A stretch of 20,000 nucleotides of DNA from Reclinomonas americana ATCC 50394 (GCA_048213135.1 PS015097.1:375231-395230), one strand, 5' to 3'; shown: positions 1,643-20,000, counted from the first letter of the stretch. The notes: generated from the sequence alone by a model not told the origin. A program made the numbers and translations.

Positions 1643-3234
1643 GAAGAACAAGAACAAGAAGAGGAAGAGGAAGAGGAAGAGAAGAAGAAAAAGAAGAACA
1701 AGAAGAGGAAGAAGAAGAACAAGAAGAGGATGAGGAAGAGGACGAGAGAAGAGGAGGAGGAGAAGAAGAAGAAGAACAAGAAGAGGAAGAGGACGAGAGA
1801 AGAGGAAGAGGAAGAGGAAGAGGAAGAGGAAGAGGAAGATGCAGAGGATAGGTGACCTTTAAGAGAGAGAGAGAGAGAGAGAAGAAGAAGAAGAAGAAGA
1901 GAGAATGGACGACAACAAACGTGCAGCAACAGCCCAAGAGCTGCCGTCACACCGCGGAAAAACAAGGAGGCAAAGAAAGCAGAGGAAACATGCAGTGCAG
2001 TGGCGCTGACCAACAACTGCAGATAATATCACACCAGACATGCACCAAGGGAATTGAGAGAGGATCAAAGCAGCACACACTGAAAGAGATGCCGTACACA
2101 GGAGACAGACTAAAAAAAGAAGAGAGAATGCACGTTTACCAACACGTGGAGGAACTGTTGCACCGACCCCACAGCAGACGGAAAGATGCGGAGAAGATGA
2201 GACAAGCGCACTGAAAGGAAACGAGTGGAGAGCATGAGCGTTGATTAACAGGAAACAGCAGTCGTGCCAGTGGCCTAAAAAATCTCGGACCATTTCCTTG
2301 CCTCAACCCTTCTGCTACTGTACCAGCAACGCACCTTTTCGTCATCCAGTCGACGCTGTCGCCGCAAGCGGAGAGTGAGAACGACGATGAGAATGGGGGC
2401 GGCCAGCAAAACGAGGCCCAGTATGACAAAGACGGCAATGAGTTTCATCCACCTGCACACAGAGCGCGCCGTCAGCACCATGTATTCTAAAAAAATGCAA
2501 CATCGCGCGGTAACGGGCACGCAACACTCCCTCGTAGCAAACGATGCTCGGCGAGAAGAGCATCAACTGCGACTGGCCAACCTTGGTGCACGCGAAAAAC
2601 ATAATCGCGGTGTCGACCAGGCCTTCGTAGGCGCCCACCAAAAGCACAACGGTGGTGGTGGCGTAACGGAACGGCGTACCCACACGACCAAACCAGCGCA
2701 CAAAGCGCGTCCAATACTGACGTCGATGCTGGAAGCGGTGGTCTTGCACGCACCACCGGTTCATGGCGACGGCCAGGAGCTTGTGCGCGGCAAACGTGAT
2801 CCACACCAAGGCCAGCGACATGAGCGGCGACAGGATGCGCAGAATGAGATCGCCAACGGCCGTGATTTGCAGCGGACAGCCGGCGTGAATGCGCGGAATG
2901 CGGAAAGACATGAGCGAAGTCAGCGCCTCCAGCTCCACTTCCGGATAGAAGAGCAGAGCGGTTGTTTGCAGAGTGAAGATTAGCATTTCGGCACTCGCTG
3001 TGGCGAGGGGGGAGGTGAGAGAAGGCGGTGAGGGGGGAGCGCGCGGGCAACAACACAGACACACACAAAGAGAGAGAGAGAGAGAGACAGGTACCAACCT
3101 CCACTGCCACCGCCCTGGAAGAAAACGTGCACGATAATGACAAAGCCCCACATGCGCGCAAATACCCACAGCCGGGCCAGGTGGCTGGTGCTCTCGCACT
3201 CGATACACTCGCCCTCCCAGTGCGAGTATCCGTC
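692..3234 (-). other. C-terminal membrane domain of the large gene (~9 hydrophobic helices) plus cytoplasmic tail
   Basis: Hydrophobic segments such as WVFARMWGFVIIVHVFF, ILSPLMSLALVWITFAA, LIAVFVILGLVLLAAPILIVVLTL, LSLWLVCVGFLAVHLW and CLILLLFASLVLASPILY. Motifs FFACTKVG..LMLFSPSIVCY, RLYGSMYSQFKPQVVWYQ..LTRRII and HLWIQAYNRRLDNILE match the pattern I know from protist 'GPCR-related'/TRP-like (fungal Flc/Pkd2-type) C-terminal membrane domains. Confidence 0.7.
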
Positions 3235-6200
3235 CTGCCACAACGTGGTGAGCTCATGAGCATGCCGCCATCCCTTCCTCTTCTCTACGTGACGCACCGC
3301 ACATGCACCACACATGGGTGAGCTGGGCGACCGATGTGATGTCGTCGTACAATAGTTGGTGCCGGGAGCAAATGCCTCGCCGCCAGTGGCACAGTAATCG
3401 TAGGGGCACAAGTAGACGTGGAGAGCGCCGTCGGGAGGTGGCAGCACGATTCCTGAACTCGGACCGCGGACAGTAGCTGGCTGGAACTGCCAGTCGGCAG
3501 ACACCGGGAACGACCAGTACCCGGACTGCACAAACAGATCGGTACCGCCCTGGCACTGCACGTGCGGTGGACAGGAAACACACTGCTCGCCAAACACCGG
3601 CAGCGAGTACTGGCCCTTCGGGCACGACACGCAGCCTTGACCTGTCTGGTACGAGTATCCTGCCGGGCACGCTGTAACGTTCATCGTCATCAGCGGCGGA
3701 TTCACAAACGTGCCGCCAGAGCTCATGCTGACTTGAATGGCAAAGCCGTCTGGCACAGATCGACTACCGGAGCGCACGTGAGAACGCGACGTCATGGTGG
3801 TGGTGGTGGTGTTGGCGTCCGCTACCACAGTCAGATCGAAAGTGGCGACTCCATCACGTGTGGCCTGTGACTGCTGCTGATCCTGTAGTGGAGATTTCAG
3901 CACGTTGAACAAAGGAGAAGAGATCGTTTGTGAACACATTCGCAACTCCCGAATTGCAGGCGCCACAAGCAACATCGAACAGCATGCCATCGAGAGTGGA
4001 CATGAGTTGACCAAAGCTGTCTTCCGCTTGCACGAGGACGACACGTGGCGTAGCTGACGACGGGTACGACACGGAGCTGTTGCTGGTGGACTCTTGCACG
4101 TTGACCGTGTAGATTGCTGTGCGAGAAGTCAACATACGAGGAGGAGGGAAAAGGGGAAAGAGAGAGGAACAAAAGAGATAAGAGGAGGGGGAGAGGAAGA
4201 GAAAAGATAAAGGGAGGAAGAGCGGCAAAGGAGAGGAAGAAAAAAGAGGAGAGGGAGAGGGAGAGGCGGAGAAGGAGTGGAGAAGGAGAGGAAGAGAAAA
4301 GATTAGGGAAGGAGAGCGGCAAAGGAGAGGAAGAAAAGAGGAGGAGAGGGGGAGGAGGGAAAGGAGTGGAGAAGAAGAGGAAGAGAAATGTTAAGGCAAG
4401 GAGAGCGGGAAAAGGACAGAAAGAGAGGAGAGCGGGAAAGAAGAGGAGGAAAAAGAGGAGATATCGACAACTACCGCCAGTAATATCCTCTCTATCTCTT
4501 TTCTTCCTTCTCTCTCCGTCGCGCTGCTGCAATGCTAGACAGAAACACAAGCGAGGCAAGGGACAGACAGCAGCTGCGCCTTCTCTCCTTTCTAAAACGA
4601 AACCCCCTCCATATTGCTCAACTTGTGGCTCCCTCAACGCCCCAGCTGGCCATGTTGCCGTCGAACGCAAACCGATGAGCGGCGGCCCATTGCGGCCATC
4701 CACCGGCCAGTTGCACGGCCTGTACGAGTGGATCGAGAGTCTGCGGATCGCTGTCGCCGTTCCAGAATATGCCGCCGCCGCCGCCCTGCCCCAGCAAATG
4801 CAACATGTCGGGCGGCGCATTGGCGGTGTTCCCGGTGAAGGTCAGGCCCGACAAAGTCGCTCCAGCCGGTGTGGCGGGATACGCGGGCAGCGTAAAGTTG
4901 AGCGACATTCCGCCACCGCGGCTGTTGCTCACATTGTCCGCGAAGAGCGAGTTGAAGAAATGCAGAATTCCACTATTCGAGATGGTCATGCCGCCACCGT
5001 CTCCGTTCTCGGCCACGTTGGCAACCAGCTGACATGCGGTGATGTTCAGGATGCCGCTGCCGCCAAAGAACAGGCCGCCACCGGCACCGAGGGCACGATT
5101 GTTGTTGATAAAGGACGCGGACAGGGAGACTCGAGGCGAGTCAGCCATGTACAACGCACCGCCGGAGATGGCTCGATTGCCGAGAAACGAAACTGATGTT
5201 GCGTCCAATTTGGCGCTCTCGGCCATGCCCACTGCTCCTCCACCGCTGCCGCCGAGCGCAGTGTTGACGGAAAAGCGTGTCCCGACGAGCTTCGAGCTCG
5301 ACCGTCCCGAGAGCTCGACCGCACCTCCGCTGAGACCCGATTGGCCATTCGACAGAGTGCTGTAGTCGTCGAGCCAGTAGCAGAAATCGTCGACCACAAG
5401 GTGGCCACCGGAGGAAACAGCGTTGTTGTTGAAAAAGGTGGCGTTCACGGAGACGAACACGCTGCGTTGGACCAAATTCAAGGCGCCGCCGGCCAGCGTG
5501 GCATTGTTGCCGGAAAATGTGCTGTTGGCCACTGTCACATAGGTGCGACCCTCGGCAAAGATGGCACCGCCGTCGGCCAGCTCAGCTACGTTGTTGAGCA
5601 GCTCACTCTCCGAAAAGTCGTGTGTGCACTGCTCGCCGGCAAACACGCCGCCACCAAAGCTCGCACTGTTGCCCACCACGCTCGCACCATACCAACTCGT
5701 CGTCGAATACGAGGCACTGTAGGCTCCGCCACCAAAGAAGACGGCTGCATTGTTGCTGACCACGCCTGCAATTGTTGTATTCATGAGGCCGGCCAGATAG
5801 AAGCCACCGCCCAGCGTCAGCGCCGCATTGTGCGTCACCGACGAGTCGCTGCTGATGCTGAGTGTCGAGTCACCAATGCCATACACACCGCCACCCACGT
5901 CGCCAAAGTTATCGGAGAGTACGGTGGCGGAGAGCAGACGCACAGCAATGTCGTCGCTCGTGATGGCCAGTCCGGCACCGAACTTGGCCAGATTTTGCAT
6001 CACAGAGCAGCCAACAATGTCCACGGACGACTGCGGCTCCGATACGAGCACACCTCCTCCCACGCCACTAGAGGCCACATTCAAGGCCACGATCACCGCC
6101 GACAATGACGACTGATCGGCGATGGCCAGACCGGCTCCGCCAGTGTCAGCCTGATTGCCAGTCACAGTCGACGTGCGGAGCGTGGCACCGTTGGCCACCA

Positions 6201-9174
6201 CCGCACCGCCTCCCACTGCAGCCGGACCATGCACCACGTTCTGGCGCAACGTACAGCTCGAGCCGACGCTGCCTAAGCCCAGCATCGCACCACCGCCGCC
6301 ACACGTACGCCCGGCATACACACTGTCGATGGAGAGCGTGACAGAATTCGACACGAAATTGCACCACGTCACCGACGCGCCTTTGATGGCGAACACGCCG
6401 CCACCTCCGCACTGATCGCCCGCAGCGTACGACGTGCCACTGGTCGACGCAACGTCGGCAGCCAGGCCACCGATACCAGCATCAACAACGGAGTTGGCGG
6501 AGAACGAGGAAGACTGGACGGCCGTGTAGGGGCCAATCAGCATCAGGCCACCGCCACCATTGTTCGGGCTCGCAGTGCCGTCGAGCGAGGCATAGTCACC
6601 GCCTCGGCCATCACGCACGGACTGATTCCTCGTGAACGTGCAGTTGGCGACAAGCAGTGGCTGCTGCACCTGGTGTGTGAAACACTCGAGACTGAGCACA
6701 AAGACAAAGCAACAACGAATGGCTCGTATGTACGCATGCATGCCTGTGCAAAGGCTCCTGACAAGGTCGGGGACACCATCAGCAGGGCACCACCGCCGCT
6801 GTAGCCGCCATTGGAGGGGCCTACGGTTGTCGAATCACCACCAGCTGCGTTCGACATGGAGAGGTTGGAGTCGAACTGGCATGATCGCACGGTCTGTCGC
6901 ATGACCAGAGGGTGAGATGGTGCGTGACGCATGCAAGAAAAAGGCACAAAAAACCACGTACGCACCACGGGGCCAGAGGGTTCGGTTGGCCGGGTGGAGA
7001 TTAGCACGGCGCCACCGCCGCAAAAGTAGGAGGCGGAGAGCGCCGAGGCAACTTTGCGATTGATTCCGTTGCCGGCATTGTTACCGCCGCTCCCTGAATG
7101 CGAGGGGGCGGGAGAAGGGGGAATGAGGAGAAGGGGGGATGAGGAGAAGGGGGGATGAGGAGAAGGGGGGATGAGGAGAAGGGAGAAGGAGAACGGAGAA
7201 GCGACAAGGGGAAGTAGAAAGGGGAAGGAACAGGGGGAAGGAACAGGGGGAAGGAACAGGGGTGAAGGAACAGGGGTGNNNNNNNNNNNNNNNNNNNNNN
7301 NNNNNNNNNNNNNNNNNNNNNNNNNNNNNNNNNNNNNNNNNNNNNNNNNNNNNNNNNNNNNNNNNNNNNNNNNNNNNNNNNNNNNNNNNNNNNNNNNNNN
7401 NNNNNNNNNNNNNNNNNNNNNNNNNNNNNNNNNNNNNNNNNNNNNNNNNNNNNNNNNNNNNNNNNNNNNNNNNNNNNNNNNNNNNNNNNNNNNNNNNNNN
7501 NNNNNNNNNNNNNNNNNNNNNNNNNNNNNNNNNNNNNNNNNNNNNNNNNNNNNNNNNNNNNNNNNNNNNNNNNNNNNNNNNNNNNNNNNNNNNNNNNNNN
7601 NNNNNNNNNNNNNNNNNNNNNNNNNNNNNNNNNNNNNNNNNNNNNNNNNNNNNNNNNNNNNNNNNNNNNNNNNNNNNNNNNNNNNNNNNNNAAGGAACAG
7701 GAGGAACGGAACAGGGGGAAGGAAAAGGGGAAGGAGAAGGGGAAAGTAACAGGGGAAGGAGAAGGGGGATGGAACGGGGGGGATGGGGAGATGAGGGAAG
7801 GGAGATAAGTGGGATGAATAAGAAGTGAAAGGAGGATGGATATGAAACAGGAGAGAAGGAGAGAGGCAATGAAGAGACAGACGGAGACGGGATACGGGGA
7901 GCACCGAGTGAGGCAATGAGCGCGGACTCAGACGCAGTGAAGGACAGAGGCAACTGGCGGAAAACAGGGAGAATGCAAACGCGAATGCACACCGTTTCCG
8001 ACAGCCTGGTTGCCTGTGAATGTTGAATTCGTCATCTGCGATGTGGAGGAGAGAGTGAGAAGCGAATGCGTGAGACAAAAGGATTGACCATCGAGCCACC
8101 AATTTAGTACGCAACTGTAATGGAACTCTGGTCAAATGGCAGAAACACGAGCACAGCTCCGCCGCCAGAGATGCTCGATGAGGAGTCGCCAGAGAGGCCG
8201 TTAGAGTTGCCACCGACTCCATTGTTGAGGGCCATGTTGTTCGCAAACGTGCAGTTGGACATTGTCGCCTAATACGCACATGTCAGTAAGAAGCAACTGG
8301 TGTATGCAGTGTGATTGCGGAGTGAACGCACCGGCCCAAGAGGGTACAGCATAATTGCACCGCCACCGTTCTGCCCGACGGTTGACACGCCGGAGATGTC
8401 GTTGAATGATCCTGCGTGCGCCACATGGTGTCATGATCAGACTCCACTGCGTAGCGAGCAAAGAACACACTAGCATGTCATCTGCGCACCGCCACAACCG
8501 CATGCTACAGCCGAATTATTAAGGAATCGGTTGTTAGTGATGCTCCCCTGCACATGAGACGGTAAGCATCTCCCTATGAAGCACGTGTGTAAACATGAGC
8601 TGCATATTTCAAACGCACGGTCCCAAAGCCAAAGATCCACGCAGCGCCACCCCCCGCAATACCGGCATTAGCGTCGCCAGTGGTGGAGTTGTTGCCTGTA
8701 CATCAATTGAGCCATGAGTACAGATCACCAGGATGCCACTGAAACTTGCCGACACACCTCCGCTGGCCACCTGCCAGACTCGATTTCCGGTAAACGTGCA
8801 ATTGTCGAGTGTGAAGGTCGGCTGTGACGGGCAGCGCACGGAGAGACGTAAATGCAACGAGCAGTGTGTGGGGAAAAGAGAGAGAAGAGAGAGAGAAGAA
8901 AAGAGAAGAGAAAAGAAAGAAGAAAAGGGGAGGCAAAGAAGAGAGCGAAGAGAAGAGTGGAGTAGAGAATTGTGAGAAGGGAAGAAGAGAAGGGGAGGCA
9001 GAAAAGAGAGCGAAGAGAAGAGAAGAAAAGAGTGGAGCAGAGAAGACGGGAGAAGGGGAGAAGAGGAGAGAGAGAAGAGAAGAGAGGGAGAAGGAGAGAA
9101 GAGGAAAAAGAGAGGAGGATCCGAAGAGAGAATGAGCGAGTGCAAGAGCAAATGCGAGCTCGCGGCGGACACAC

Positions 9175-9209
<35 letters not shown>

Positions 9210-12200
9210 GAGTTATTGCGCACAGACACAACAAGCGAGCATTGCACGCAACAGTGCCGGCGAGGTTAGTTTTCAGCCACACAAAGAGGCCACCGCCACC
9301 AACGTAATTGGAAGTCGAGCTGCTGTCGACACCACGAGCCACTGTGTGTGGCGTTGGGGGTCAGTACAGACCGTGCGTATGATTGATTAGTTGCCACACC
9401 ACCACACTCGCTCAAGTACACCAACCAGAACCACCATTGCCCAGCTGCTGGACAACGTTACTGGAGAATGTGCATCCGGCGACACTCACAGCCGGCTGCG
9501 ACAGGTAGGGATGATGAGAGCAAGCGACAGGCAGCACTCGCAGTCACAAGCACTGACCACAGCCGTATCCTGGAACGAAAAGAAGAAAAACCCGCCACCG
9601 CCTGATCCTTCTGATTCACTCTGGCATGTCCCGGAATTAGTGCCTGTGAGCATCGCACAAGCTCCTTAGCAAGGTACACACAGCTCAGAGCAGACGGACT
9701 CTGGAAGGAGAACCTCCATTTCCGACGTTTGACACTAGGTTGGACGTGAAGTTGGTATTGACCACCGATACGGTGGTCTGCGAGCACAGCAGAGGACAGA
9801 GTTAAGCGCGCCGAAACAAGAGATGAGCTTGGGTGCGATAACATACCGAGTAGTAGGCTGATATCCACACGGCACCGCCGCCGTGTGTGCCAGTTGAAGA
9901 GTCGGAGGAGTCGACATTGTTGTTGCCTGATACGAGAGGTGAGAAGGGAAAGGGGAGAAGGAAAACGGAGAAGGAAAGAGAAGATGAGAACAGAGTAGAA
10001 GGGAAAGTGGAGAAGGGGAAGTGGAGAAGGGAAGAGGAGAGAGGAAAAGCGGAGAAGGGAAAGTGGAGAAGCGAGAGTGGAGAAGGGAAGGAGGACAAGG
10101 AAAACGGAGAAGGAAAGAGAAGAGAGGAGAACAGAGAAGAAGGGAAAGGCGAGAATGGACACGCGAGAGCGGAAATGTGAGAGTGGAGAATGGAAGGAGG
10201 GAAAGAAAGAATCCAGAAGGGAGGGATGCGTGACACAGGACAGAGCGAGAGCGAGAAAAGCAGCGTATCCACACACGCAAGCGTGGAGAACGGAAGGAAG
10301 AAAAGAAAGAGTCCAGAAGGGTGGGATGCGTGACAGAGGGCCAGGCCGTGCTATACCAAGCAGAGCGAAAACGAGGAAAGAAGCGTATCCACACACGCAG
10401 TAGAAGCGTTCACCCCCCTCAAGAAAGCACTGGCAGCAAAGGGACAGACCGGAAGTAACGGAGGCCGAAGAGGGAATATCGAGAGAGGTGGACAGTGCGA
10501 GGAGAGGCGGTTTGACCAGCAACACATACTTACTAACACCGAAGGAAACTTCGTGACAAGAAGCGACACCAATGATGCCTCGTGTAGGATGCAAGGAATA
10601 TTCGGCTGAGTGGGCAAATGGTAGCAACGCACCTCCGTTCCCGCTGTTGGTCACTGTGTTGTTCACGAACTGGCAATTGCCGATGGAAGCCGTGAACTGC
10701 GAGGGTCCCCACGGAAGAGAAAAATGTACATGATGAGACATGGAGACGACGAACACGCGCGATCACACAGGCACAGGTGCGCACCGGCACGGCAGACATT
10801 ATCCAAACACCACCGCCACCACAATACCCGCCAGAAGATGATCCCGTGGTGTATGCCGTGGCTGTGACGAGCAGCATGTGCCAGTCGGTCAACGAAGAAA
10901 GACAACAAAAAAAAGCAGACCTCGACTGGCGGAGCACGCAACCACTGGTAGAGCTGGAACCACCGTTGCAAACGCCATTCACATTATTATTGACAAACAC
11001 GGAGTCGACAATCGACTCTGTCGGTTGCACCGCCTGCGCATGACGGATGGTGAGTGCGCCGCGCGCACCGGAGAGACACCCTCGTCATGCGTACCAGTGC
11101 ACTGCCTTGCGGAGCCATGAAGACCACATATACGGCACCACCGCCGCCGCCACCGCCTGCAGCATCCTGGGAAGCGCCCGTGTTCAACTGACCTCCGTTG
11201 CCCGAGTTGGAGACACTGTTGCCGGAGAAGATTGATCCCGAAATCTATGCAAGAACGGACATTTTCCTTGAGAAAGGGGAGCAACAATGTGCAACGCTGC
11301 GCAATCCACGTACCAGGTGCGACTGGGAGACACGCGCAAAAATCGCTCCACCGCCGACAAAAGTATAGCGAGCGGAATCGATTGAATTGATCAACGAAAC
11401 AGCGATCGTGTTTCCAGATCCGGAATTTGAGTTGCCACCGTTGGCTGCGCCGGTTACCGTGTTGCGCAGAAATGATGACTGCAACACCTGAGAGACGTAC
11501 GCAAGGCCCGACACGTAAAAAAAAAACAGGAGGACAGCATTAACCGATGGGGACAACGCCGGCGCAACTTGGTGCACGCCAGCAGGCGTGTGGAACACGG
11601 CACCGCCACCGCAGATGGCACCGGAGCTGCCGTCGTTGTTGGTTTTTACCGGACCGTTGCAGCTGTTGCTGACGCTGTTGTCGCTGAACTGCGACTGTGT
11701 GATCTGCGCAATCGACGAGATCAGGGGGGAGAAAGGGGAAAGGAGAGGGAGAAGGGGGAAAGGGAAGGGGAAGGGGAAGGGGAGGGAAGGGAAGGGTAGA
11801 GAGGGGAAGGGAAGGGAACGGAAGAGGAGGGAAGGGTAGAGAAGGGAAGGGATGAGATGGGAATGGAAGGGAAGGGAAGGGAAGGGAAGCGAAGGGAAGG
11901 AAGGGAGAGAGTGAGGCAGGGAGAGAGACAGGGAGACGGAGAAATGGCGAGAACGGGGGGAGACGGAATGAGCTGCAGGGAAGGAATGACGAGGAGACAG
12001 AGATGAGAGAGAAAGAGCGAGAAACGAAGAGAGGGAAGAGGGAAGGGCAGGGAGAGAAGGAATAAGACGAGGACACAAGGGGAGTGGGAGAGGGCGAAGA
12101 ATAAGAAGGAATAGGGTGCACAAAACTCGGCATCTCAGTCGCCATCAGGCATCTCACAGACAGCAAAGATATCAGAACAAACTACTCAATCCCACTGCCT

Positions 12201-13990
12201 CTGGCTACCTCTCCCCCATCGCACAGATCAAGCACGCAGAAATAACGTACTCAACTCATGTCCTCCACAACACACATCAGACAAACCCCTCTCAAAACAC
12301 ACCTTGAGCAGTGCCGTATCAGCAAATGACTGGAAGAACACGGCACCACCGCCCGCTCGCCAGCCACCACTTGTGTCCACACCAGAGGCGAATGAACACC
12401 GAGTGCGGCACACAATGCTGTTGGCGCTGGTGGAGACTTGGTTGTTGCTGAAGGTGGAGTTGAAGAACGTGGCACTGAGCATGGTCGAGAGCAGCACGCC
12501 ACCACCTCCCACATACGTCTGGCCGCCGGGAGTTGCCGTGTCACCGTTTCCGCAGTTCACCACCACGTTGTTACGCCACGTACTGCTCGAGTCGGTGTAC
12601 GAGACCGACGACGCTTGCATGGACCCCAGGAAGAGTGCGCCGCCACCGTTGAACTGTCCGGGAAGCCCGCGTGCCGTGTTGCTGTCAAACATGCACTGCA
12701 ATGTACTGACCGAAAAGAGCGCCGTGCCAACAGCAAGCACCGCACCGCCACCTCGATAACTGATCGAATTGGTGGTTGTGGTGCCGGTGGCGTCCACGGT
12801 GTTGTTGAAAAATGTGCAGCGCTGCAGAGACACACAGAGAAAGCGCGGCTCCGCTTGCATTCGCTCCGAGTTTTGCGCAGGATGTAAACGAAGAGTCCAT
12901 CACCGTCACCTTGAGAAACTTGCCGTTCAACGAAATGGCGGAACCCGCCAAACCTCCAGCGGTGGATGTGATGCGAGAGAACACGCAGCCAGTGACCGAT
13001 AGCAGCGGTTGCGTGGTGGAGGGCGCAGCTGTCGAGTCGAGCGAAATGGCACCGGCTGTTGCGTCGGCAAATGTGCAGCTGGAAAAGGTCAGTTGTGGTG
13101 AGACAACGGCCGCGGTGCCCAGCGGAGCCGTCCAGATGACTGGCGCCTTCGTGGAGCCTCCACTGAACGAGAGGCCAGACAAAGTGACTTGCGCAGCCTG
13201 CGTAAAGTTGAAGGCGCTGAAGGAGCCGGCGAGGATGGTGGGGGTCATTGCGTTGTTGGAGGGGGAGACAGAGACGGAGCGGCCTGTGGGAAGAGAGTGG
13301 TGAGTCAAGGAGAGGGAAGAAAAGGCGGACATCGAACTGGACAGTAAGCACGCCAACTTGGATCCAAACAAACTCACCAACGACGGTCAACTGAGTACCG
13401 GCCTGCGTCACGTTGTAGAGACCGCCAAGCATCAGCACGGACAGTGACCACGCCGTCGACTGCGCGTCAAACGACTGCGTGGATGAGCACGACAGCACCG
13501 CCGCGGAGAGGGCACAGGCGTTGTCGGCCGTGAGGCCACAGGCTGCGGCATTCGTTGAACCGGTCGGCGACACAAAGACTGCAGGAAGGCGTCAGCGAGA
13601 GATGAGGGAGAGGGGACAGAACAGGCTCATCTAATGCAATCATATCAATCCCCGCTCTCCACACAACTCACCCGTGCACACAGTAGCCGCCGTCGAAACA
13701 GCGCTGGACTCGTACACTCTTGCGGGCGCTGGCGCTGGCGGTGACGGTGACGCGCGGACACTGAAATCGTCTGCTGGACCAGCCGCAGCCGCCGACACGC
13801 GGTCTGTCTCGCGGTGGACTGCGTGCGTTCGTATGCGAGTGCGGCGGGCAAGCAAGTCGCCAGAGTGCAACTCGAGGAGACGATCGCTCAGGCGCGGCGG
13901 TAACTTCTGCGCTTCACTCGAGGAGATGAAGAGGCAGCTGATGGTCACCAGGCCGAGAAGGAGAAGGAGAGGCGCAGAGAGGCGCGCCAT
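692..13990 (-). CDS. Large (~2,490 aa, ~33 exons) secreted-ectodomain multi-pass membrane protein: Pmp-like/pectin-lyase-fold beta-helix repeats + Cys-rich ephrin-receptor-like region + ~9-TM membrane domain
   Basis: Manual exon chain with all phases consistent: 13990-13672, 13578-13378, 13283-~12904, 12821-12303, 11703-11545, 11487-11314, 11244-11095, 11033-10943, 10861-10785, 10696-10633, 9926-9847, 9777-9714, 9643-9558, 9495-9426, 9341-9253, 8821-8758, 8695-8619, 8547-8490, 8411-8332, 8268-8116, 8035-7993, 7093-6966, 6893-~6744, 6669-4623, 4116-~3947, 3882-3298, 3234-3099, 2997-2526, 2452-2335, 1557-1497, 1439-1273, 1203-963, 885-692 (TAG). Signal peptide MARLSAPLLLLLGLVTISCLFISSSEA. Beta-helix N-cap VFVSPTGS..CG....AC. 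Dozens of FxxN and GG[AG][VIL] motifs. Some junctions are ambiguous and one intron contains a gap. Confidence 0.85.
1600..1905 (+). repeat. (GAA)n/(GAGGAA)n/(GA)n purine-rich simple repeats in intron 1558-2334
   Basis: Seen directly; lies between exons that join cleanly (..RLDDEK|TMRLYG..). Confidence 0.9.
3180..3670 (-). other. Cys-rich juxtamembrane region (ephrin-receptor-like / GCC2-GCC3-type repeat and following Cys module)
   Basis: CPAGYSYQTGQGCVSCPKGQYSL..EQCVSCPPHVQCQGG..VQSGYW...CPYDYC...C...HR....MCGACA|DGYSHW..ECIEC. Confidence 0.75.
4140..4460 (+). repeat. Polypurine low-complexity tract (intronic; polypyrimidine on the transcript)
   Basis: Almost exclusively A/G; within intron 4117-4622. 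Confidence 0.85.
4623..6669 (-). other. Single 2,047-nt exon encoding an uninterrupted run of Pmp-like beta-helix repeats
   Basis: ORF 4618..6741 contains repeated FxxNxA...GGA[ILV] units (e.g. FSGNNATLAGGALNL, FLGNRAISGGALYM, FINNNRALGAGGGLFF). Acceptor CAG at 6672-6670; donor at 4622. Confidence 0.85.
7110..7278 (+). repeat. Short tandem repeats (gaggagaagggggrat-like, ~15-16 bp; gaaggaacagggg, ~13 bp) running into an assembly gap
   Basis: Seen directly; within intron 7094-7992. Confidence 0.8.
7279..7690. other. Assembly gap (Ns) inside a purine-rich intron
   Basis: N run flanked on both sides by aaggaacag-type repeats. Confidence 0.99.
8870..9207 (+). repeat. Polypurine tract followed by (CA)n microsatellite (about 9168-9207), intronic
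   Basis: Seen directly; within intron 8822-9252. Confidence 0.88.
9935..10400 (+). repeat. Polypurine tract plus an imperfect ~100-bp tandem duplication (10201-10279 vs 10301-10399), intronic
   Basis: aaagaaagaRtccagaagggWgggatgcgtgaca...cagagcga...agcgtatccacacacgca occurs twice. Confidence 0.85.
11722..12112 (+). repeat. Polypurine tract with (GAAGG)n/(GAAGGG)n repeats, intronic
   Basis: Seen directly; within intron 11704-12302. Confidence 0.88.
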
Positions 13991-14850: not shown

Positions 14851-17800
14851 GGCGGACGGCGTCGCGTCGCGCGCACCATGTCGCCCGATCTTAAACTGTT
14901 TCTGTGTGACCAGGTGTGCCTTTGCCGGTCAGGCAAATCTCCACCGGCTTCAAGGGGACGTCCATTGCGCCGCCGGTGGGTGCTGGCGTCACGTTCTCGC
15001 AAGACGACCACTGGAGTGTCACTGTGAACGGCCAGACCACCAAGGCCTACGTGAGCAACCCTTCGATGTGCTACACGGGGACGACCATTTGCTGGGACGC
15101 TCCCTCCACGGCCTCTGCGTGGGTGACTCCATGTGAGTAGATCTCTCTCTCTCTCTTCCCTTATGCTTCGAATTACCTCCTCTCCTTTGTTGAGCAAGAA
15201 CTAAAACACTTGTTCCGCTCACAGCCAGCAGCAGCACGGCCCCCTATGCGTGGGACAACAAGACATTGCAGTACACCACCAGCTTTGACATGACGGGCTA
15301 CGATCCGAGCAAAACAATCTTGCAGATTCGACTTGAGGGAGACGCAGCTTCTGCCTCCCCGTCGAGCGCCTTTGTGCAACTGACGCCTGCCGGCACCACA
15401 AATCTACTTGCAGTGCCCTATCCCTCGTGGTTGGGTGATAACTCGTATGTGCTCTCCAACCATCCGTGGGTGACGGTGACAGGATGGCTTCCGAAGGCAG
15501 GCAATGTGCTGTCGGTGAAAATCAAAAATTTCAGCGATATCACTGGACTCCGAGTGGAGGCGCAGTGTGAGTACCGCTCCACATCCGTGGTGTGTACGTG
15601 TTGCAATGACTTGCAAATTTATGCTCACCGAGTTTCATGTGCATGCAGTGCTCTGCAGCACAAGTGCCTGCGCAGCGTCCTTTACGTGCTGCTTTGGCCT
15701 ATGTGCCCAAACCAGCAGTGATGTCAGCAACTGTGGCGTGTGCGGCAACGTGTGCCCCACTGGCCAGTCGTGCTGCAGTGGCAAGTGTGTCAGTTCCAGC
15801 AGCGACATCAACAACTGCGGCACTTGTGGCAAGGTGTGCGCAGCCGGCCAAGCCTGCTGCAATGGCTCGTGCGTCAACCTCAGCAGCAACACAAGCAACT
15901 GTGGTACTTGTGGCAAGTCGTGTGCGACTGGCCAGGACTGCTGCAGCGGCGTGTGCGTCTTGCCAAGCAGTTACACCAGTGACAGCAAGAACTGCGGCTC
16001 GTGCGGCAACGTGTGCCCCACTGGTCAGTCGTGCTGCAATGGCAAGTGCGTCAACCTCAGCAGCAACACGAGCAACTGCGGTACTTGTGGCAAGTCGTGC
16101 GCCGCCGGTCAGGACTGCTGCAGCGGCGTGTGCGTATTGCCAAGCAGTTACACCAGTGATAGCAAGAACTGCGGCTCGTGCGGCAACGTGTGCCCCACTG
16201 GCCAGTCGTGCTGCAACGGCGTCTGCACCAATCTCGCCAGCAACGCCAACAACTGCGGCACTTGTGGCAAGGTGTGTCCCACTGGGCAGTCGTGCTGCAA
16301 TGGCTCGTGTGTGAACCTCAGCAGCAACACGAGCAACTGTGGTACGTGTGGCAAGTCGTGCGCCGCCGGTCAGGACTGCTGCAACAGTGTTTGTTACGCC
16401 ATCAGCAACTACGCCACTGACGTTAAGAACTGCGGCTCGTGCGGCAACGTGTGCCCCACTGGGCAGTCGTGCTGCAACGGCGTCTGCACCAATCTCGCCA
16501 GCAACGCCAACAACTGCGGCGTCTGCGGCAAGGTGTGTCCCACTGGGCAGTCGTGCTGCAACGGCTCGTGTGTGAACCTCAGCAGCAACACGAGCAACTG
16601 CGGTACGTGTGGCAAGACGTGCGCCGCCGGCCAGGACTGCTGCAACGGTGTNNNNNNNNNNNNNNNNNNNNNNNNNNNNNNNNNNNNNNNNNNNNNNNNN
16701 NNNNNNNNNNNNNNNNNNNNNNNNNNNNNNNNNNNNNNNNNNNNNNNNNNNNNNNNNNNNNNNNNNNNNNNNNNNNNNNNNNNNNNNNNNNNNNNNNNNN
16801 NNNNNNNNNNNNNNNNNNNNNNNNNNNNNNNNNNNNNNNNNNNNGCAGTTACACCAGTGATAGCAAGAACTGCGGCTCGTGCGGCAACGCATGTCCCACT
16901 GGGCAGTCGTGCTGCAATGGCAAGTGCGTCAGCCTCAGCAGCGACATCAACAACTGCAAAACCTGTGGCAACATTTGCCCAGTCCGTCAGGTCTGCTGCA
17001 ACGGCGTGTGCATGTTTCCCGGCAATTACGCCAACGACAGGAACAATTGTGGCTCTTGCGGTTTTGTGTGCCCCGCCACAAGCCAGTCATGCTGCAACAG
17101 CAACTGCGTCGTGTTGAGTAGCGATGTGAGCAACTGTGGCACCTGTGGCAACGTGTGCCCCACTNNNNNNNNNNNNNNNNNNNNNNNNNNNNNNNNNNNN
17201 NNNNNNNNNNNNNNNNNNNNNNNNNNNNNNNNNNNNNNNNNNNNNNNNNNNNNNNNNNNNNNNNNNNNNNNNNNNNNNNNNNNNNNNNNNNNNNNNNNNN
17301 NNNNNNNNNNNNNNNNNNNNNNNNNNNNNNNNNNNNNNNNNNNNNNNNNNNNNNNNNNNNNNNNNNNNNNNNNNNNNNNNNNNNNNNNNNNNNNNNNNNN
17401 NNNNNNNNNNNNNNNNNNNNNNNNNNNNNNNNNNNNNNNNNNNNNNNNNNNNNNNNNNNNNNNNNNNNNNNNNNNNNNNNNNNNNNNNNNNNNNNNNNNN
17501 NNNNNNNNNNNNNNNNNNNNNNNNNNNNNNNNNNNNNNNNNNNNNNNNNNNNNNNNNNNNNNNNNNNNNNNNNNNNNNNNNNNNNNNNNNNNNNNNNNNN
17601 NNNNNNNNNNNNNNNNNNNNNNNNNNNNNNNNNNNNNNNNNNNNNNNNNNNNNNNNNNNNNNNNNNNNNNNNNNNNNNNNNNNNNNNNNNNNNNNNNNNN
17701 NNNNNNNNNNNNNNNNNNNNNNNNNNNNNNNNNNNNNNNNNNNNNNNNNNNNNNNNNNNNNNNNNNNNNNNNNNNNNNNNNNNNNNNNNNNNNNNNNNNN

Positions 17801-18597
17801 NNNNNNNNNNNNNNNNNNNNNNNNNNNNNNNNNNNNNNNNNNNNNNNNNNNNNNNNNNNNNNNNNNNNNNNNNNNNNNNNNNNNNNNNNNNNNNNNNNNN
17901 NNNNNNNNNNNNNNNNNNNNNNNNNNNNNNNGGGCAGTCGTGCTGCGCTGGCAAGTGTGTCAACCTCAGCAACAATCCATTCAACTGCGGCACGTGCGGC
18001 AAGTCGTGCGCCGCCGGTCAGGACTGCTGCAACAGCGTGTGCTACACCATCAGCAACTACGCCACTGACGTCAAGAATTGCGGCAAATGCGGCAACGTGT
18101 GCCCCACTGGCCAGTCGTGCTGCAACGGCGTCTGCACCAACCTCAGCAACAACGCCAACAACTGTGGCACCTGTGGCAAGACGTGCGCCACCGGTCAAGT
18201 CTGCTGCAACGGCTTGTGCGTCCTGTCCAGCAGTTTCACCAACGACAGGAACAATTGTGGCTCTTGCGGCTTTGTGTGCCCCGCTACTAGCCAGTCGTGC
18301 TGCAACAGCAAGTGCGTCGTGTTGAGCAGCGATCCGAGCAACTGCGGCACCTGTGGCAAGACGTGCCCCACTGGCCAGTCGTGCTGCAATAGTGTCTGCG
18401 TTAATACCCAGAGCTTCGCCACCGACGCCAAGAATTGTGGCACGTGCGGACATGTGTGCCCGCTGACGGCACCCAATTGCTGCAGCGGATCGTGTGTGGC
18501 GCCGACCAATGATCCGCTGAAATGTGGTCCGTGCGCCAATATACAGTGCCTTCCCAATCTCAAGTGCTGCACGGGAGTGTGCAAGACCGCCTGCTGA
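14610..18597 (+). CDS. Secreted protein: signal peptide + jelly-roll/galactose-binding-like domain + long array of Stig1-type Cys-rich repeats
   Basis: Exons 14610-14625, 14706-14768, 14914-15132, 15225-15566 and 15649-18597 (TGA; interrupted by 2 gaps). All four introns are GTGAGT..CAG, phase 1, and join in frame. N-terminus MSTKHVTSRLLVPLLCVIILLVGVSHG is a signal peptide. Repeat unit [SD]xxNCGxCGxxCxxGQxCCxGxCVxL is the pattern of Stig1-family repeats. No TM or GPI-like C-terminus (ends CCTGVCKTAC). Confidence 0.85.
14806..14846 (+). repeat. (TG)n microsatellite in intron 2 of the Stig1-repeat gene
   Basis: Seen directly. Confidence 0.95.
16652..16844. other. Assembly gap within the Cys-rich repeat array
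   Basis: N run flanked by repeat units. Confidence 0.99.
17165..17931. other. Assembly gap within the Cys-rich repeat array
   Basis: N run; the flanks read ..tgccccact|gggcagtcg.., i.e. the same point of the repeat unit on both sides. Confidence 0.99.
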
Positions 18598-18773: not shown

Positions 18774-19811
18774 CTACCACCAAAGCGCGCGACGCTCAAT
18801 CACCTCTGCATCCTCCAACACAAAGCACCGCAGCACAACATCAACGAGGATCCAGTCACGGCCATCGTCCTCCTCGCCGAACAGCAGCTCGTCGACGGCC
18901 AGCGCGGCCGATCGCGCGGCCGCAAGCTCGTGCCGCGACAGTCCACGCGGCGTGGTCCACACTCGGATCGTCTTGTCTCCGCCCGCGCTCACAATGTGGT
19001 GACCATTGGAAGTGACGGCAACGCTAACCACTGAGCGAGTGTGTCCCTCCAACCGTCGCACCTCCTCACCGCTCGCCAGCGACCACACACGCACTGTGGT
19101 GTCATCGCTTCCGCTGATGACGTGTTGGCCGTCGGGAGTGAGAGCGACGGACAGCACTGCACTGCTGTGCCCCTCCAATCGCCGTACTTCCTCGCCGCTC
19201 GCCAGAGACCACACACGTACCGTATGATCATCGCCCGCGCTCACAATGCGCTCGCCATCGGGAGCGACAGCAGAAGACCACACCAATTCAGCGTGCCCAT
19301 CCAGTCGTCGTACTTCTTCTCCACTCGCGAGGGACCACACTCGCATTGTAGCATCCTGACACCCGCAAATAATATGCTGACCATCTGGAGTGACGGCGAC
19401 ACAATACACCCCGCCAGAGTGCCCCGACAGGCGCCGCACTTCTTCTCCACCGGCCAGTGACCACACCCGCAATGTCTTGTCATGGCCGCCGCTCACAATG
19501 TGCTGACCATCAGGAGTAACAGCGACAGACCACACCCATGCAGTGTGTCCCTCCAACCGCCGTTCTTCCTCGCCGCTAGCAAGAGACCACACTCGCAATG
19601 TCTTGTCGAAACTGCCGCTGACAATGTGGCGACCGTCGGGAGTGACAGCGACGGAGGCAACCCATCCAGTGTGTCCCTCCAACCGTCGCACTTCTTCTCC
19701 AGTCGTGAGCGACCACACACGCAGTGTCTTGTCAGTGCTTCCACTCACGACGTGGAGACCGTCGGGAGTGATGGCCACACATCGCACCGTGTCTGTGTGA
19801 CCATGTAAGAC
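18774..19811 (-). CDS. Last coding exon of a WD40-repeat protein (7 highly similar repeats, HET-E/NWD-like) with a helical C-terminal tail; upstream exons lie off the window
   Basis: Acceptor CAG at 19814-19812 (phase 0) downstream of a (CT)n tract. Seven 42-aa repeats LEGHxxxVxSVAVTPDGxHIVSGSxDKTxRVWSLASGEEVRR with 126-nt DNA periodicity. TAG at 18776-18774. Confidence 0.88.
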   Translation of the reverse strand, partial: VLHGHTDTVRCVAITPDGLHVVSGSTDKTLRVWSLTTGEEVRRLEGHTGWVASVAVTPDGRHIVSGSFDKTLRVWSLASGEEERRLEGHTAWVWSVAVTPDGQHIVSGGHDKTLRVWSLAGGEEVRRLSGHSGGVYCVAVTPDGQHIICGCQDATMRVWSLASGEEVRRLDGHAELVWSSAVAPDGERIVSAGDDHTVRVWSLASGEEVRRLEGHSSAVLSVALTPDGQHVISGSDDTTVRVWSLASGEEVRRLEGHTRSVVSVAVTSNGHHIVSAGGDKTIRVWTTPRGLSRHELAAARSAALAVDELLFGEEDDGRDWILVDVVLRCFVLEDAEVIERRALWW

Positions 19812-19836
19812 CTGTGTCAAACGATGAGACAGGCAC

Positions 19837-19838
<2 letters not shown>

Positions 19839-19906
<68 letters not shown>

Positions 19907-19931
19907 GACGACGACGACGACGACGTACGAC

Positions 19932-20000
<69 letters not shown>
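19839..20000 (+). repeat. Compound microsatellite (AG)n-(ACG)n-(AC)n in an intron of the WD40 gene
   Basis: Seen directly. Confidence 0.95.

Follow-up and report, generated by a model that had tools for sequence, protein, structure and literature searches.

Introduction

The Pmp proteins of chlamydiae carry two short motifs, FxxN and GGA, which the account of their repeats given in PMC11166332 places within a larger repeat matching the coils of the protein, and among eukaryotes, Pmp-like proteins are known from trichomonads, as recorded in the passages of PMC6701047 that deal with them. Genes in which each repeat of a protein has an exon of its own have been described in Tetrahymena, where the authors of the study on arrays of leucine-rich repeats (LRRs) attribute the nearly uniform intron phase, in the sections concerned, to the clonal spread of one exon together with its intron (PMC6564038). 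A different kind of exon array is spliced in a mutually exclusive manner, and competing RNA structures with selector sequences underlie several of these, according to the part of PMC6071210 devoted to them. Here, we analyzed a stretch of 20,000 nucleotides of Reclinomonas americana ATCC 50394 (GCA_048213135.1, PS015097.1:375231-395230), hereafter the window, in which one long gene on the minus strand contains an array of twelve exon modules, each encoding one Pmp-type repeat.

A preliminary description of this locus had proposed that the array grew by duplication of a module bounded by introns, and that whole modules or their halves might be recombined during splicing to diversify a Pmp-like surface receptor in the manner of Dscam. 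The account that we consider the best overall, and a likely one, combines a β-helix built of one coil per module, an old duplication of the module and constitutive splicing of all exons.

The gene model and the twelve modules

The window is eukaryotic DNA of ~58% G+C, interrupted by three assembly gaps and rich in short GT-AG introns; all positions given here are counted on the whole window. The array forms the middle of a gene with at least 24 exons between 13990 and 4623 and further exons downstream (Table 1). The interval 6600-12950 was read on the minus strand, and each boundary put forward in the preliminary description was tested for splice sites. For the 14 segments checked (the twelve units and the two flanking exons), an AG was found before all 14 and a GT after 13, the segment ending at 6744 being followed by GC. 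This donor, CAG|GCATGC in the intron 6670-6743 (minus strand), is the only GC donor among those checked and, since a GT donor of suitable phase was not found there, a GC-AG intron is the only model after 6744. Donors conform to the consensus G|GTGCGT and acceptors to YGCAG or CACAG throughout the gene.

Joining the 21 exons from 12821 to 4623 gives 4399 nt free of stop codons. With the three upstream exons added (24 exons, 13990-4623), the frame starts with the ATG at 13990 and runs over 1764 codons without a stop, which requires all 23 junctions. Removal is needed to keep the frame for 17 of the 20 introns, and the G+C content at third codon positions (GC3) is 0.64-0.72 in exons, whereas short introns are flat, with 0.49-0.56 over the three positions. 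The small number of retainable introns, the consistent consensus and the difference in composition between exons and introns together indicate that splicing is really needed. The three introns whose retention would cause neither a stop nor a frameshift are 11488-11544 (57 nt), 10862-10960 (99 nt, so that unit 4 is also open with its intron retained) and 6894-6965 (72 nt), all on the minus strand; if kept, they would insert 19, 33 and 24 residues, respectively, and would not truncate the protein.

Each of the twelve consecutive units encodes 46-58 amino acids (aa) in the order FxxN, NG, a loop of 14-27 aa rich in G, S, N and T, and GGG(A/G)hhh. The alternation of motifs expected of a Pmp, [FW]xxN followed by GGG[AGLF], was found in all twelve units and in both flanking exons. 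Introns at unit boundaries are in phase 0 (13 of 13) and introns inside units in phase 1 (7 of 7). In six of the seven split units, the internal intron splits the 12th residue after the F of FxxN; unit 11, where the 9th residue is split, is the only one in which this intron is shifted, by three codons upstream of the others. The phase-0 introns lie 5-12 residues ahead of the next F and 12-22 residues past the previous GGG. The first half-exons of four consecutive units (5-8) all measure exactly 64 nt, and the six split units 4-9 are contiguous. Such a register of intron positions to protein motifs is far beyond chance.

Splice sites, sizes and the stop-free frame thus bear out the twelve phase-0-bounded units of 138-174 nt of the preliminary description, as well as the splitting of seven of them by a phase-1 intron at or near one glycine-rich spot, which turns out to be the identical codon in six. 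Two other elements of that description stand in part. The loop, which it called variable, does vary in sequence but little in length, as it measures 14-16 aa in 10 of the 12 units and 22 and 27 aa in the other two; the loops consist of G, S, N, T, D and A for 74% of their residues, with few hydrophobic ones. Similarly, the neighboring 2-kb exon (6669-4623), said to hold many similar repeats with no intron, does consist of intronless coils, but long loops occur only in the first three of its ~22 coils, the remainder being plain 27-aa coils.

For the split units, every GT..AG pair at least 40 nt apart that keeps the unit open was enumerated, which yielded 18, 35, 24 and 8 pairs for units 4, 5, 6 and 7, respectively, three each for units 8 and 9, and six for unit 11. 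The junction was then picked by donor consensus and repeat register: each split unit has one candidate whose donor fits the consensus of the gene and lies directly after the NG behind FxxN, and with it the unit regains a length of 46-57 aa. The assembly gap 7279-7691, in which further units could be hidden, lies within the internal intron of unit 11.

Apparent frameshifts at ~12835 and ~3870, considered as signs of a pseudogene or an assembly error, were rejected, as both are explained by short introns with gene-like donors and acceptors (12822-12909 and ~3885-3975, minus strand).

Two sharply different classes of introns occur in this one gene. Sixteen of the 20 introns between 12821 and 4623 measure 57-99 nt, and the few long ones of the gene (11704-12302, 9927-10632, 8822-9252, 7094-7992 and 4130-4620) consist largely of low-complexity tandem repeats, CT-rich on the gene strand, with periods between 5 and 139 nt.

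Further evidence on the N-terminal part of the array gene comes from a distant relative. When exon 12821-12303 was compared by HMMER with the full set of 1.84 billion representatives, two proteins, P0172 and P0173, matched at E ≤ 1e-3. The latter was rejected by eye as an unrelated repeat protein, which leaves P0172 as the sole Pmp-like match. P0172 (457 aa, from an assembly contig of 2015 nt) is colinear with residues 192-460 of our model. The 88-nt intron 12909-12822 is supported by P0172, whose alignment spans the junction and lacks the additional coil expected from read-through. Each of the four long-loop units of exon 12821-12303 has its own counterpart in P0172, down to the loop with Cys in the fourth unit. 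The Pmp-like sequence of P0172 ends 19 residues past the last GGG and gives way to unrelated residues, a tail that might stem from reading through a donor of the GTGCGT type at the position corresponding to intron 12302-11704.

Table 1. Exons and modules of the array gene, in the order of transcription, with positions on the 20,000-nt window. Coding lengths of the units exclude internal introns.
Feature	Position	Strand	Coding length (nt)	Remarks
First coding exon	13672..13990	-		ATG at 13990, signal-peptide-like N-terminus; ends in phase 1, donor G|GTGAGT
Exon 2	13378..13578	-		Cys-containing N-terminal cap before the predicted β-helix; AG acceptor, GTGAGT donor, frame continuity
Exon 3	12910..13283	-		First predicted β-helix coils; followed by an 88-nt phase-0 intron, 12909-12822
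Exon with four long-loop units	12303..12821	-		Intronless, 173 aa; matched unit by unit by P0172
Unit 1	11545..11703	-	159	Single exon, phase 0 at both ends
Unit 2	11314..11487	-	174	Single exon, phase 0 at both ends; longest loop (27 aa)
Unit 3	11095..11244	-	150	Single exon, phase 0 at both ends
Unit 4	10785..11033	-	150	Halves 11033-10961 (73 nt) and 10861-10785 (77 nt); 99-nt phase-1 intron
Unit 5	9847..10696	-	144	Halves 10696-10633 (64 nt) and 9926-9847 (80 nt); 706-nt CT-rich phase-1 intron
Unit 6	9558..9777	-	150	Halves 9777-9714 (64 nt) and 9643-9558 (86 nt); 70-nt phase-1 intron
Unit 7	9253..9495	-	153	Halves 9495-9432 (64 nt) and 9341-9253 (89 nt); 90-nt phase-1 intron
Intron after unit 7		-		431 nt, CT-rich, with a (GT)n run (9169-9207)
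Unit 8	8619..8821	-	141	Halves 8821-8758 (64 nt) and 8695-8619 (77 nt); 62-nt phase-1 intron
Unit 9	8332..8547	-	138	Halves 8547-8490 (58 nt) and 8411-8332 (80 nt); 78-nt phase-1 intron
Unit 10	8116..8268	-	153	Single exon, phase 0 at both ends
Unit 11	6966..8035	-	171	Halves 8035-7993 (43 nt) and 7093-6966 (128 nt); 899-nt CT-rich phase-1 intron
Unit 12	6744..6893	-	150	Single exon; followed by the sole GC-AG intron, 6743-6670
2-kb exon	4623..6669	-	2047	Intronless; three long-loop units, then ~19 plain 27-aa coils
Downstream exons	2330..4118	-		Boundaries rough; immunoglobulin (Ig)-like or unknown region, Cys-rich region, several hydrophobic helices

Protein family and fold

In word-based protein searches, the 2-kb exon has only distant relatives (22-35% identical), and PF02415 (Chlam_PMP) or PF13229 (Beta_helix) is present in most of them; a metagenome scan returned a single locus (L001), 28% identical. 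The exon itself matches PF02415 with an E-value of 0.016 and 15.8 bits, below the curated gathering threshold of 20.6, and exon 3 shows a weak match to PF13229 (E 0.0038), also under the cut-off; no Pfam match was obtained for exon 12821-12303 or for any of the five unsplit unit exons. The nearest ESM Atlas clusters of the 2-kb exon are Chlam_PMP (0.94).

An AlphaFold2 (AF2) model of the 2-kb exon, computed from an alignment of 35 sequences, has a mean predicted local distance difference test score (pLDDT) of 75.9, with residues ~160-620 mostly above 85. This part is modelled as a confident three-stranded solenoid with a period of 27 residues. Searched with Foldseek, the model retrieved right-handed β-helices only (Ag43, pertactin, PL6 lyases, tailspikes), the matches being weak (best E 7e-4). 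According to DSSP, each confident 27-aa coil comprises one GGA, one FxxN and three strands, in the order GGA, a short strand and turn, a five-residue strand, a strand ending in the F of FxxN, and a stretch leading to the next GGA. This layout agrees with what the motif section of PMC11166332 states on motifs and coils in chlamydial Pmps. That the protein is Pmp-like, as originally proposed, is supported by the FxxN/GGA alternation, the PF02415 and PF13229 domains of its relatives, the ESM Atlas clusters and the β-helix model of the 2-kb exon.

The array units share the motif order of the confident coils plus 14-16 extra residues (10 of 12 units), from which we infer that each module would correspond to one β-helix coil with an inserted surface loop. 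Since long-loop units themselves are modelled with low confidence, the argument is one of motif homology with the coils of the 2-kb exon. On this assignment, the phase-0 introns would interrupt the turn or strand by which the chain enters the FxxN side, and the phase-1 intron would coincide exactly with the start of the inserted loop.

Topology of the protein

The N-terminus is hydrophobic and resembles a signal peptide (Kyte-Doolittle peak of 2.44, residues 4-22). Downstream of the 2-kb exon, a Cys-rich, predicted juxtamembrane region is followed by several hydrophobic helices, the last of which precedes a basic stretch, with C-terminal hydropathy peaks at ~3171-3115, ~2848-2792 and ~2650-2594. 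A Pfam scan of this downstream region returned zero families, autotransporter included, and no similarity was found between the C-terminal region (2330-3300) and P0070, a relative that bears a seven-transmembrane (7TM) domain. The signal-peptide-like N-terminus and the hydrophobic helices beyond the Cys-rich region make the ectodomain of the preliminary description very likely, and the ectodomain of a membrane protein is a reasonable reading of these predicted features; the label "receptor" is a guess.

Origin of the array

At the protein level, the twelve units share a mean identity of 31% over 66 pairs (range 21-46%), neighbors being no closer to each other than non-neighbors. In the interval 6600-12400, 17 families of direct repeats were found, comprising the CT-rich tracts of four long introns, an (AC)n run, coding repeats that are short motifs (codons of GGxGG and FxxN) and one near-match of 16 nt. 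The latter, identical at 15 of 16 positions, links 8820-8835 (the acceptor before unit 8) with 10860-10875 (the acceptor inside unit 4) and is roughly at chance level in 5.8 kb by a rough estimate. The array has one repeat unit per exon module and a uniform intron phase at the unit boundaries, and it lacks the nucleotide similarity between neighboring exon-intron units that marks a young array. The duplication is old, as indicated by the low identity between units and by introns that share no sequence.

Growth by duplication of an intron-bounded module, already suggested in the preliminary description, remains the most economical origin, considering the identical position and phase of the internal intron in six of seven units and the four 64-nt half-exons. 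That the duplicated module was already split is the simplest assumption in view of the same identical position, the 64-nt half-exons and the contiguity of units 4-9. In the scheme that we propose, the gene would encode a secreted, membrane-anchored protein whose ectodomain forms a right-handed parallel β-helix of Pmp-type coils. Twelve successive coils would each derive from their own exon module and carry a loop of 14-27 aa between the FxxN and GGGA strands. The ancestral module, made of half-exon A, a phase-1 intron, half-exon B and a phase-0 intron, would have undergone tandem duplication long ago, followed by divergence of the copies and by loss of the internal intron in five units. By default, every module would be expected to be spliced in constitutively, so as to give one continuous helix.

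Several points weigh against this scheme. All junctions are predictions from the genomic sequence, and several alternative frame-keeping GT..AG pairs (3-35) exist for each split unit. The positions of the phase-0 introns scatter over 8 residues relative to the motifs. Identity does not group the split units 4-9 apart from the others, so that duplication of a split module is favored by intron position only. AF2 assigned low confidence to the long-loop units in residues 1-160 of the 2-kb exon, and the four long-loop units of exon 12821-12303, modelled from the single sequence, reached a pLDDT of 32.3. Lastly, AF2 reportedly over-predicts β-solenoids for repeats, as stated in the portion of bioRxiv 10.1101/2024.10.30.621056 that concerns such proteins; here, sequence family and motifs concur with the β-helix fold.

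The scatter of the phase-0 positions and the inseparability of split and unsplit units by identity would also fit an order of events in which the repeats came first, intronless coils having gained introns independently at recurring proto-splice sites, such as G|GT in Gly codons after NG. Consistent with such late gains, neither the long-loop units of exon 12821-12303 nor those that open exon 6669-4623 contain introns, 17 of the 20 donors have a G at position -1 with flanks that are mostly G|GT, and the bacterial and metagenomic relatives are intronless proteins of short coils. However, independent gains account poorly for six of seven phase-1 introns at the same codon and phase and for four neighboring half-exons of 64 nt; the contiguity of split units 4-9 fits duplication or regional loss rather than independent hits, and in the unsplit units NGG is likewise present at this place but is not interrupted by an intron. 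We regard late acquisition of the introns as unlikely.

A gene model that is partly wrong, or a locus that does not work, appears very unlikely. It would involve coding sequence mistaken for introns, misplaced junctions, units hidden in the gap or a gene in decay, and it could call upon the three introns that are open in frame, the single GC donor, the run of Ns inside the intron of unit 11, the reliance of the junctions on genomic sequence, and the start of intron 12909-12822, an in-frame stretch resembling a Pmp coil that might be a former part of an exon. Against it stand the stop-free frame of 1764 codons with its demand for all 23 junctions, the consistent splice consensus, the compositional difference between exons and introns, and the alignment of P0172 over the junction 12909-12822 without an extra coil.

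Splicing of the modules

With the duplication of a split module as the preferred origin, the remaining question concerns the use of the modules. The preliminary description noted that whole units could be skipped, and any FxxN half-exon joined to any downstream loop half-exon, without loss of frame. This arithmetic is correct, as the boundaries are in phase 0 and the internal introns in phase 1, and a gene spliced in this way would give rise to many isoforms. Dropping a module would, on the coil-per-module model, take out one whole coil and leave the register of the helix intact, and the loops are hydrophilic, divergent in sequence and plausibly exposed on the surface. Frame compatibility, however, follows automatically from module duplication and is hence not evidence of combinatorial use. 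The units are of unequal length (138-174 nt) and of low identity (21-46%), and they would form successive coils; equal-length alternative exons for one structural position were not found among them.

The introns do not point to cassettes either. Words of 7-9 nt that are shared by or complementary between introns do not exceed shuffled controls, and docking or selector complementarity above shuffles was likewise not detected in this exact-word test, which weak or G-U-rich pairings could escape; a single inverted pair of 16 nt occurs in the 5.8 kb between 6600 and 12400. Splice sites are uniformly near the consensus of the gene, and the prevailing architecture of introns of 57-99 nt (16 of 20) is one linked to intron retention rather than exon skipping. 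Intron retention is held to be prevalent outside animals, and exon skipping to be unusually high in animals, according to the statements on this subject in PMC6142364. Furthermore, the units of exon 12821-12303 are individually conserved in P0172, which suggests that, in this exon at least, the coils are fixed and not exchanged as cassettes. Diversification in the manner of Dscam is unsupported by these data, and we judge it highly improbable that the symmetric modules serve as cassettes. Equally slim is the chance that skipping or recombination of modules provides this unicellular eukaryote, from one gene, with a family of β-helix receptors or adhesins of varying length and loop set.

Neighboring genes

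A gene on the plus strand (15519-18597), broken by the assembly gaps 16652-16844 and 17165-17931, encodes many tandem Cys-rich repeats of the type CGxCGxxCxxGQxCCxGxC and matches the STIG1-like Pfam family PF04885 (E 1.7e-36, four stretches in the 221 aa scanned). On the minus strand, low-complexity sequence derived from (GT)n and (CT)n precedes an open reading frame (ORF) of 408 aa (18774-20000) that runs off the end of the window and contains seven WD40 repeats (PF00400, E 6.5e-82).

Significance and comparison with known systems

The locus offers a clean case of a gene structure that would mirror a β-helix, with one coil per exon module and a second intron where the inserted loop begins. 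We found no description of such an exon structure, with a coil per exon, for Pmp-like or other parallel β-helix repeats in open-access papers and preprints (supplements excluded). The arrangement can serve as a marker for the annotation of similar genes, whose short half-exons of 43-89 nt are easily missed, and it may help to date the expansion of repeats and the loss of introns in a subfamily of proteins that is poorly sampled. It also defines a place in which to search a protist for splicing-based surface variation. Should splicing be constitutive, as we expect, the array records a duplication history and no more; if the modules did act as cassettes, the result would be surface diversity generated by splicing in a non-animal, with a solenoid as its scaffold instead of Ig domains.

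Fibrillar collagens, with their 54-bp exons, and epidermal growth factor (EGF) and Ig modules, with their 1-1 exons, are classical cases in which introns of a single phase flank each repeat or module, as a side effect of exon duplication or shuffling. These symmetric exons belong to other folds and lineages, and their phase symmetry is mostly constitutive; by analogy, constitutive use may be expected here.

The exon clusters of Drosophila Dscam1 resemble the array in that homologous, frame-compatible exons stand in tandem in the gene of a surface receptor (PMC1397879, PMC6071210, in the parts that describe these clusters). The exons of a Dscam1 cluster are, in the same descriptions, alternatives for one structural position of which exactly one is included, and pairing of docking and selector RNA sequences enforces the choice in some clusters, whereas the modules of R. 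americana are successive parts of a predicted solenoid with unequal lengths, and such elements were not found in their introns by the word comparison described above.

In terms of protein, the closest counterparts are the chlamydial Pmps and the Pmp-like proteins of trichomonads, which share the alternating FxxN and GGA(I/L/V)-type motifs and have the right-handed β-helix and the surface location that are predicted here, as portrayed in the relevant portions of PMC11166332, PMC10715098 and PMC6701047. The chlamydial proteins are bacterial autotransporters encoded by intronless genes and ending in a C-terminal β-barrel. The gene of R. americana differs in having at least 23 introns, a predicted eukaryotic signal peptide and a systematic insertion of 14-16 aa in the coils of the N-terminal half, and a Cys-rich region with hydrophobic helices occupies the C-terminal side in place of an autotransporter β-barrel.

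In terms of gene structure, the nearest case that we found is that of the LRR arrays of Tetrahymena with their 90-bp exons, as presented in the sections of PMC6564038 on these genes. There, the fold is the LRR rather than the β-helix, the exons measure exactly 90 bp and more than 98% of the introns are in phase 2, whereas the units described here span 138-174 nt, are bounded in phase 0 and carry, in seven cases, an additional internal phase-1 intron. The Tetrahymena arrays extend over thousands of genes and have an associated retrotransposon (PMC6564038, same sections), as opposed to one gene in our window, with no mobile element seen. What the two share is a protist protein, solenoid by prediction in R. 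americana, with one repeat per exon or exon module and a near-uniform intron phase and, for the older Tetrahymena arrays treated in those sections, short introns and a loss of repeat similarity at the nucleotide level (PMC6564038). The array of R. americana thus belongs to a known class, that of arrays with one repeat per symmetric exon.

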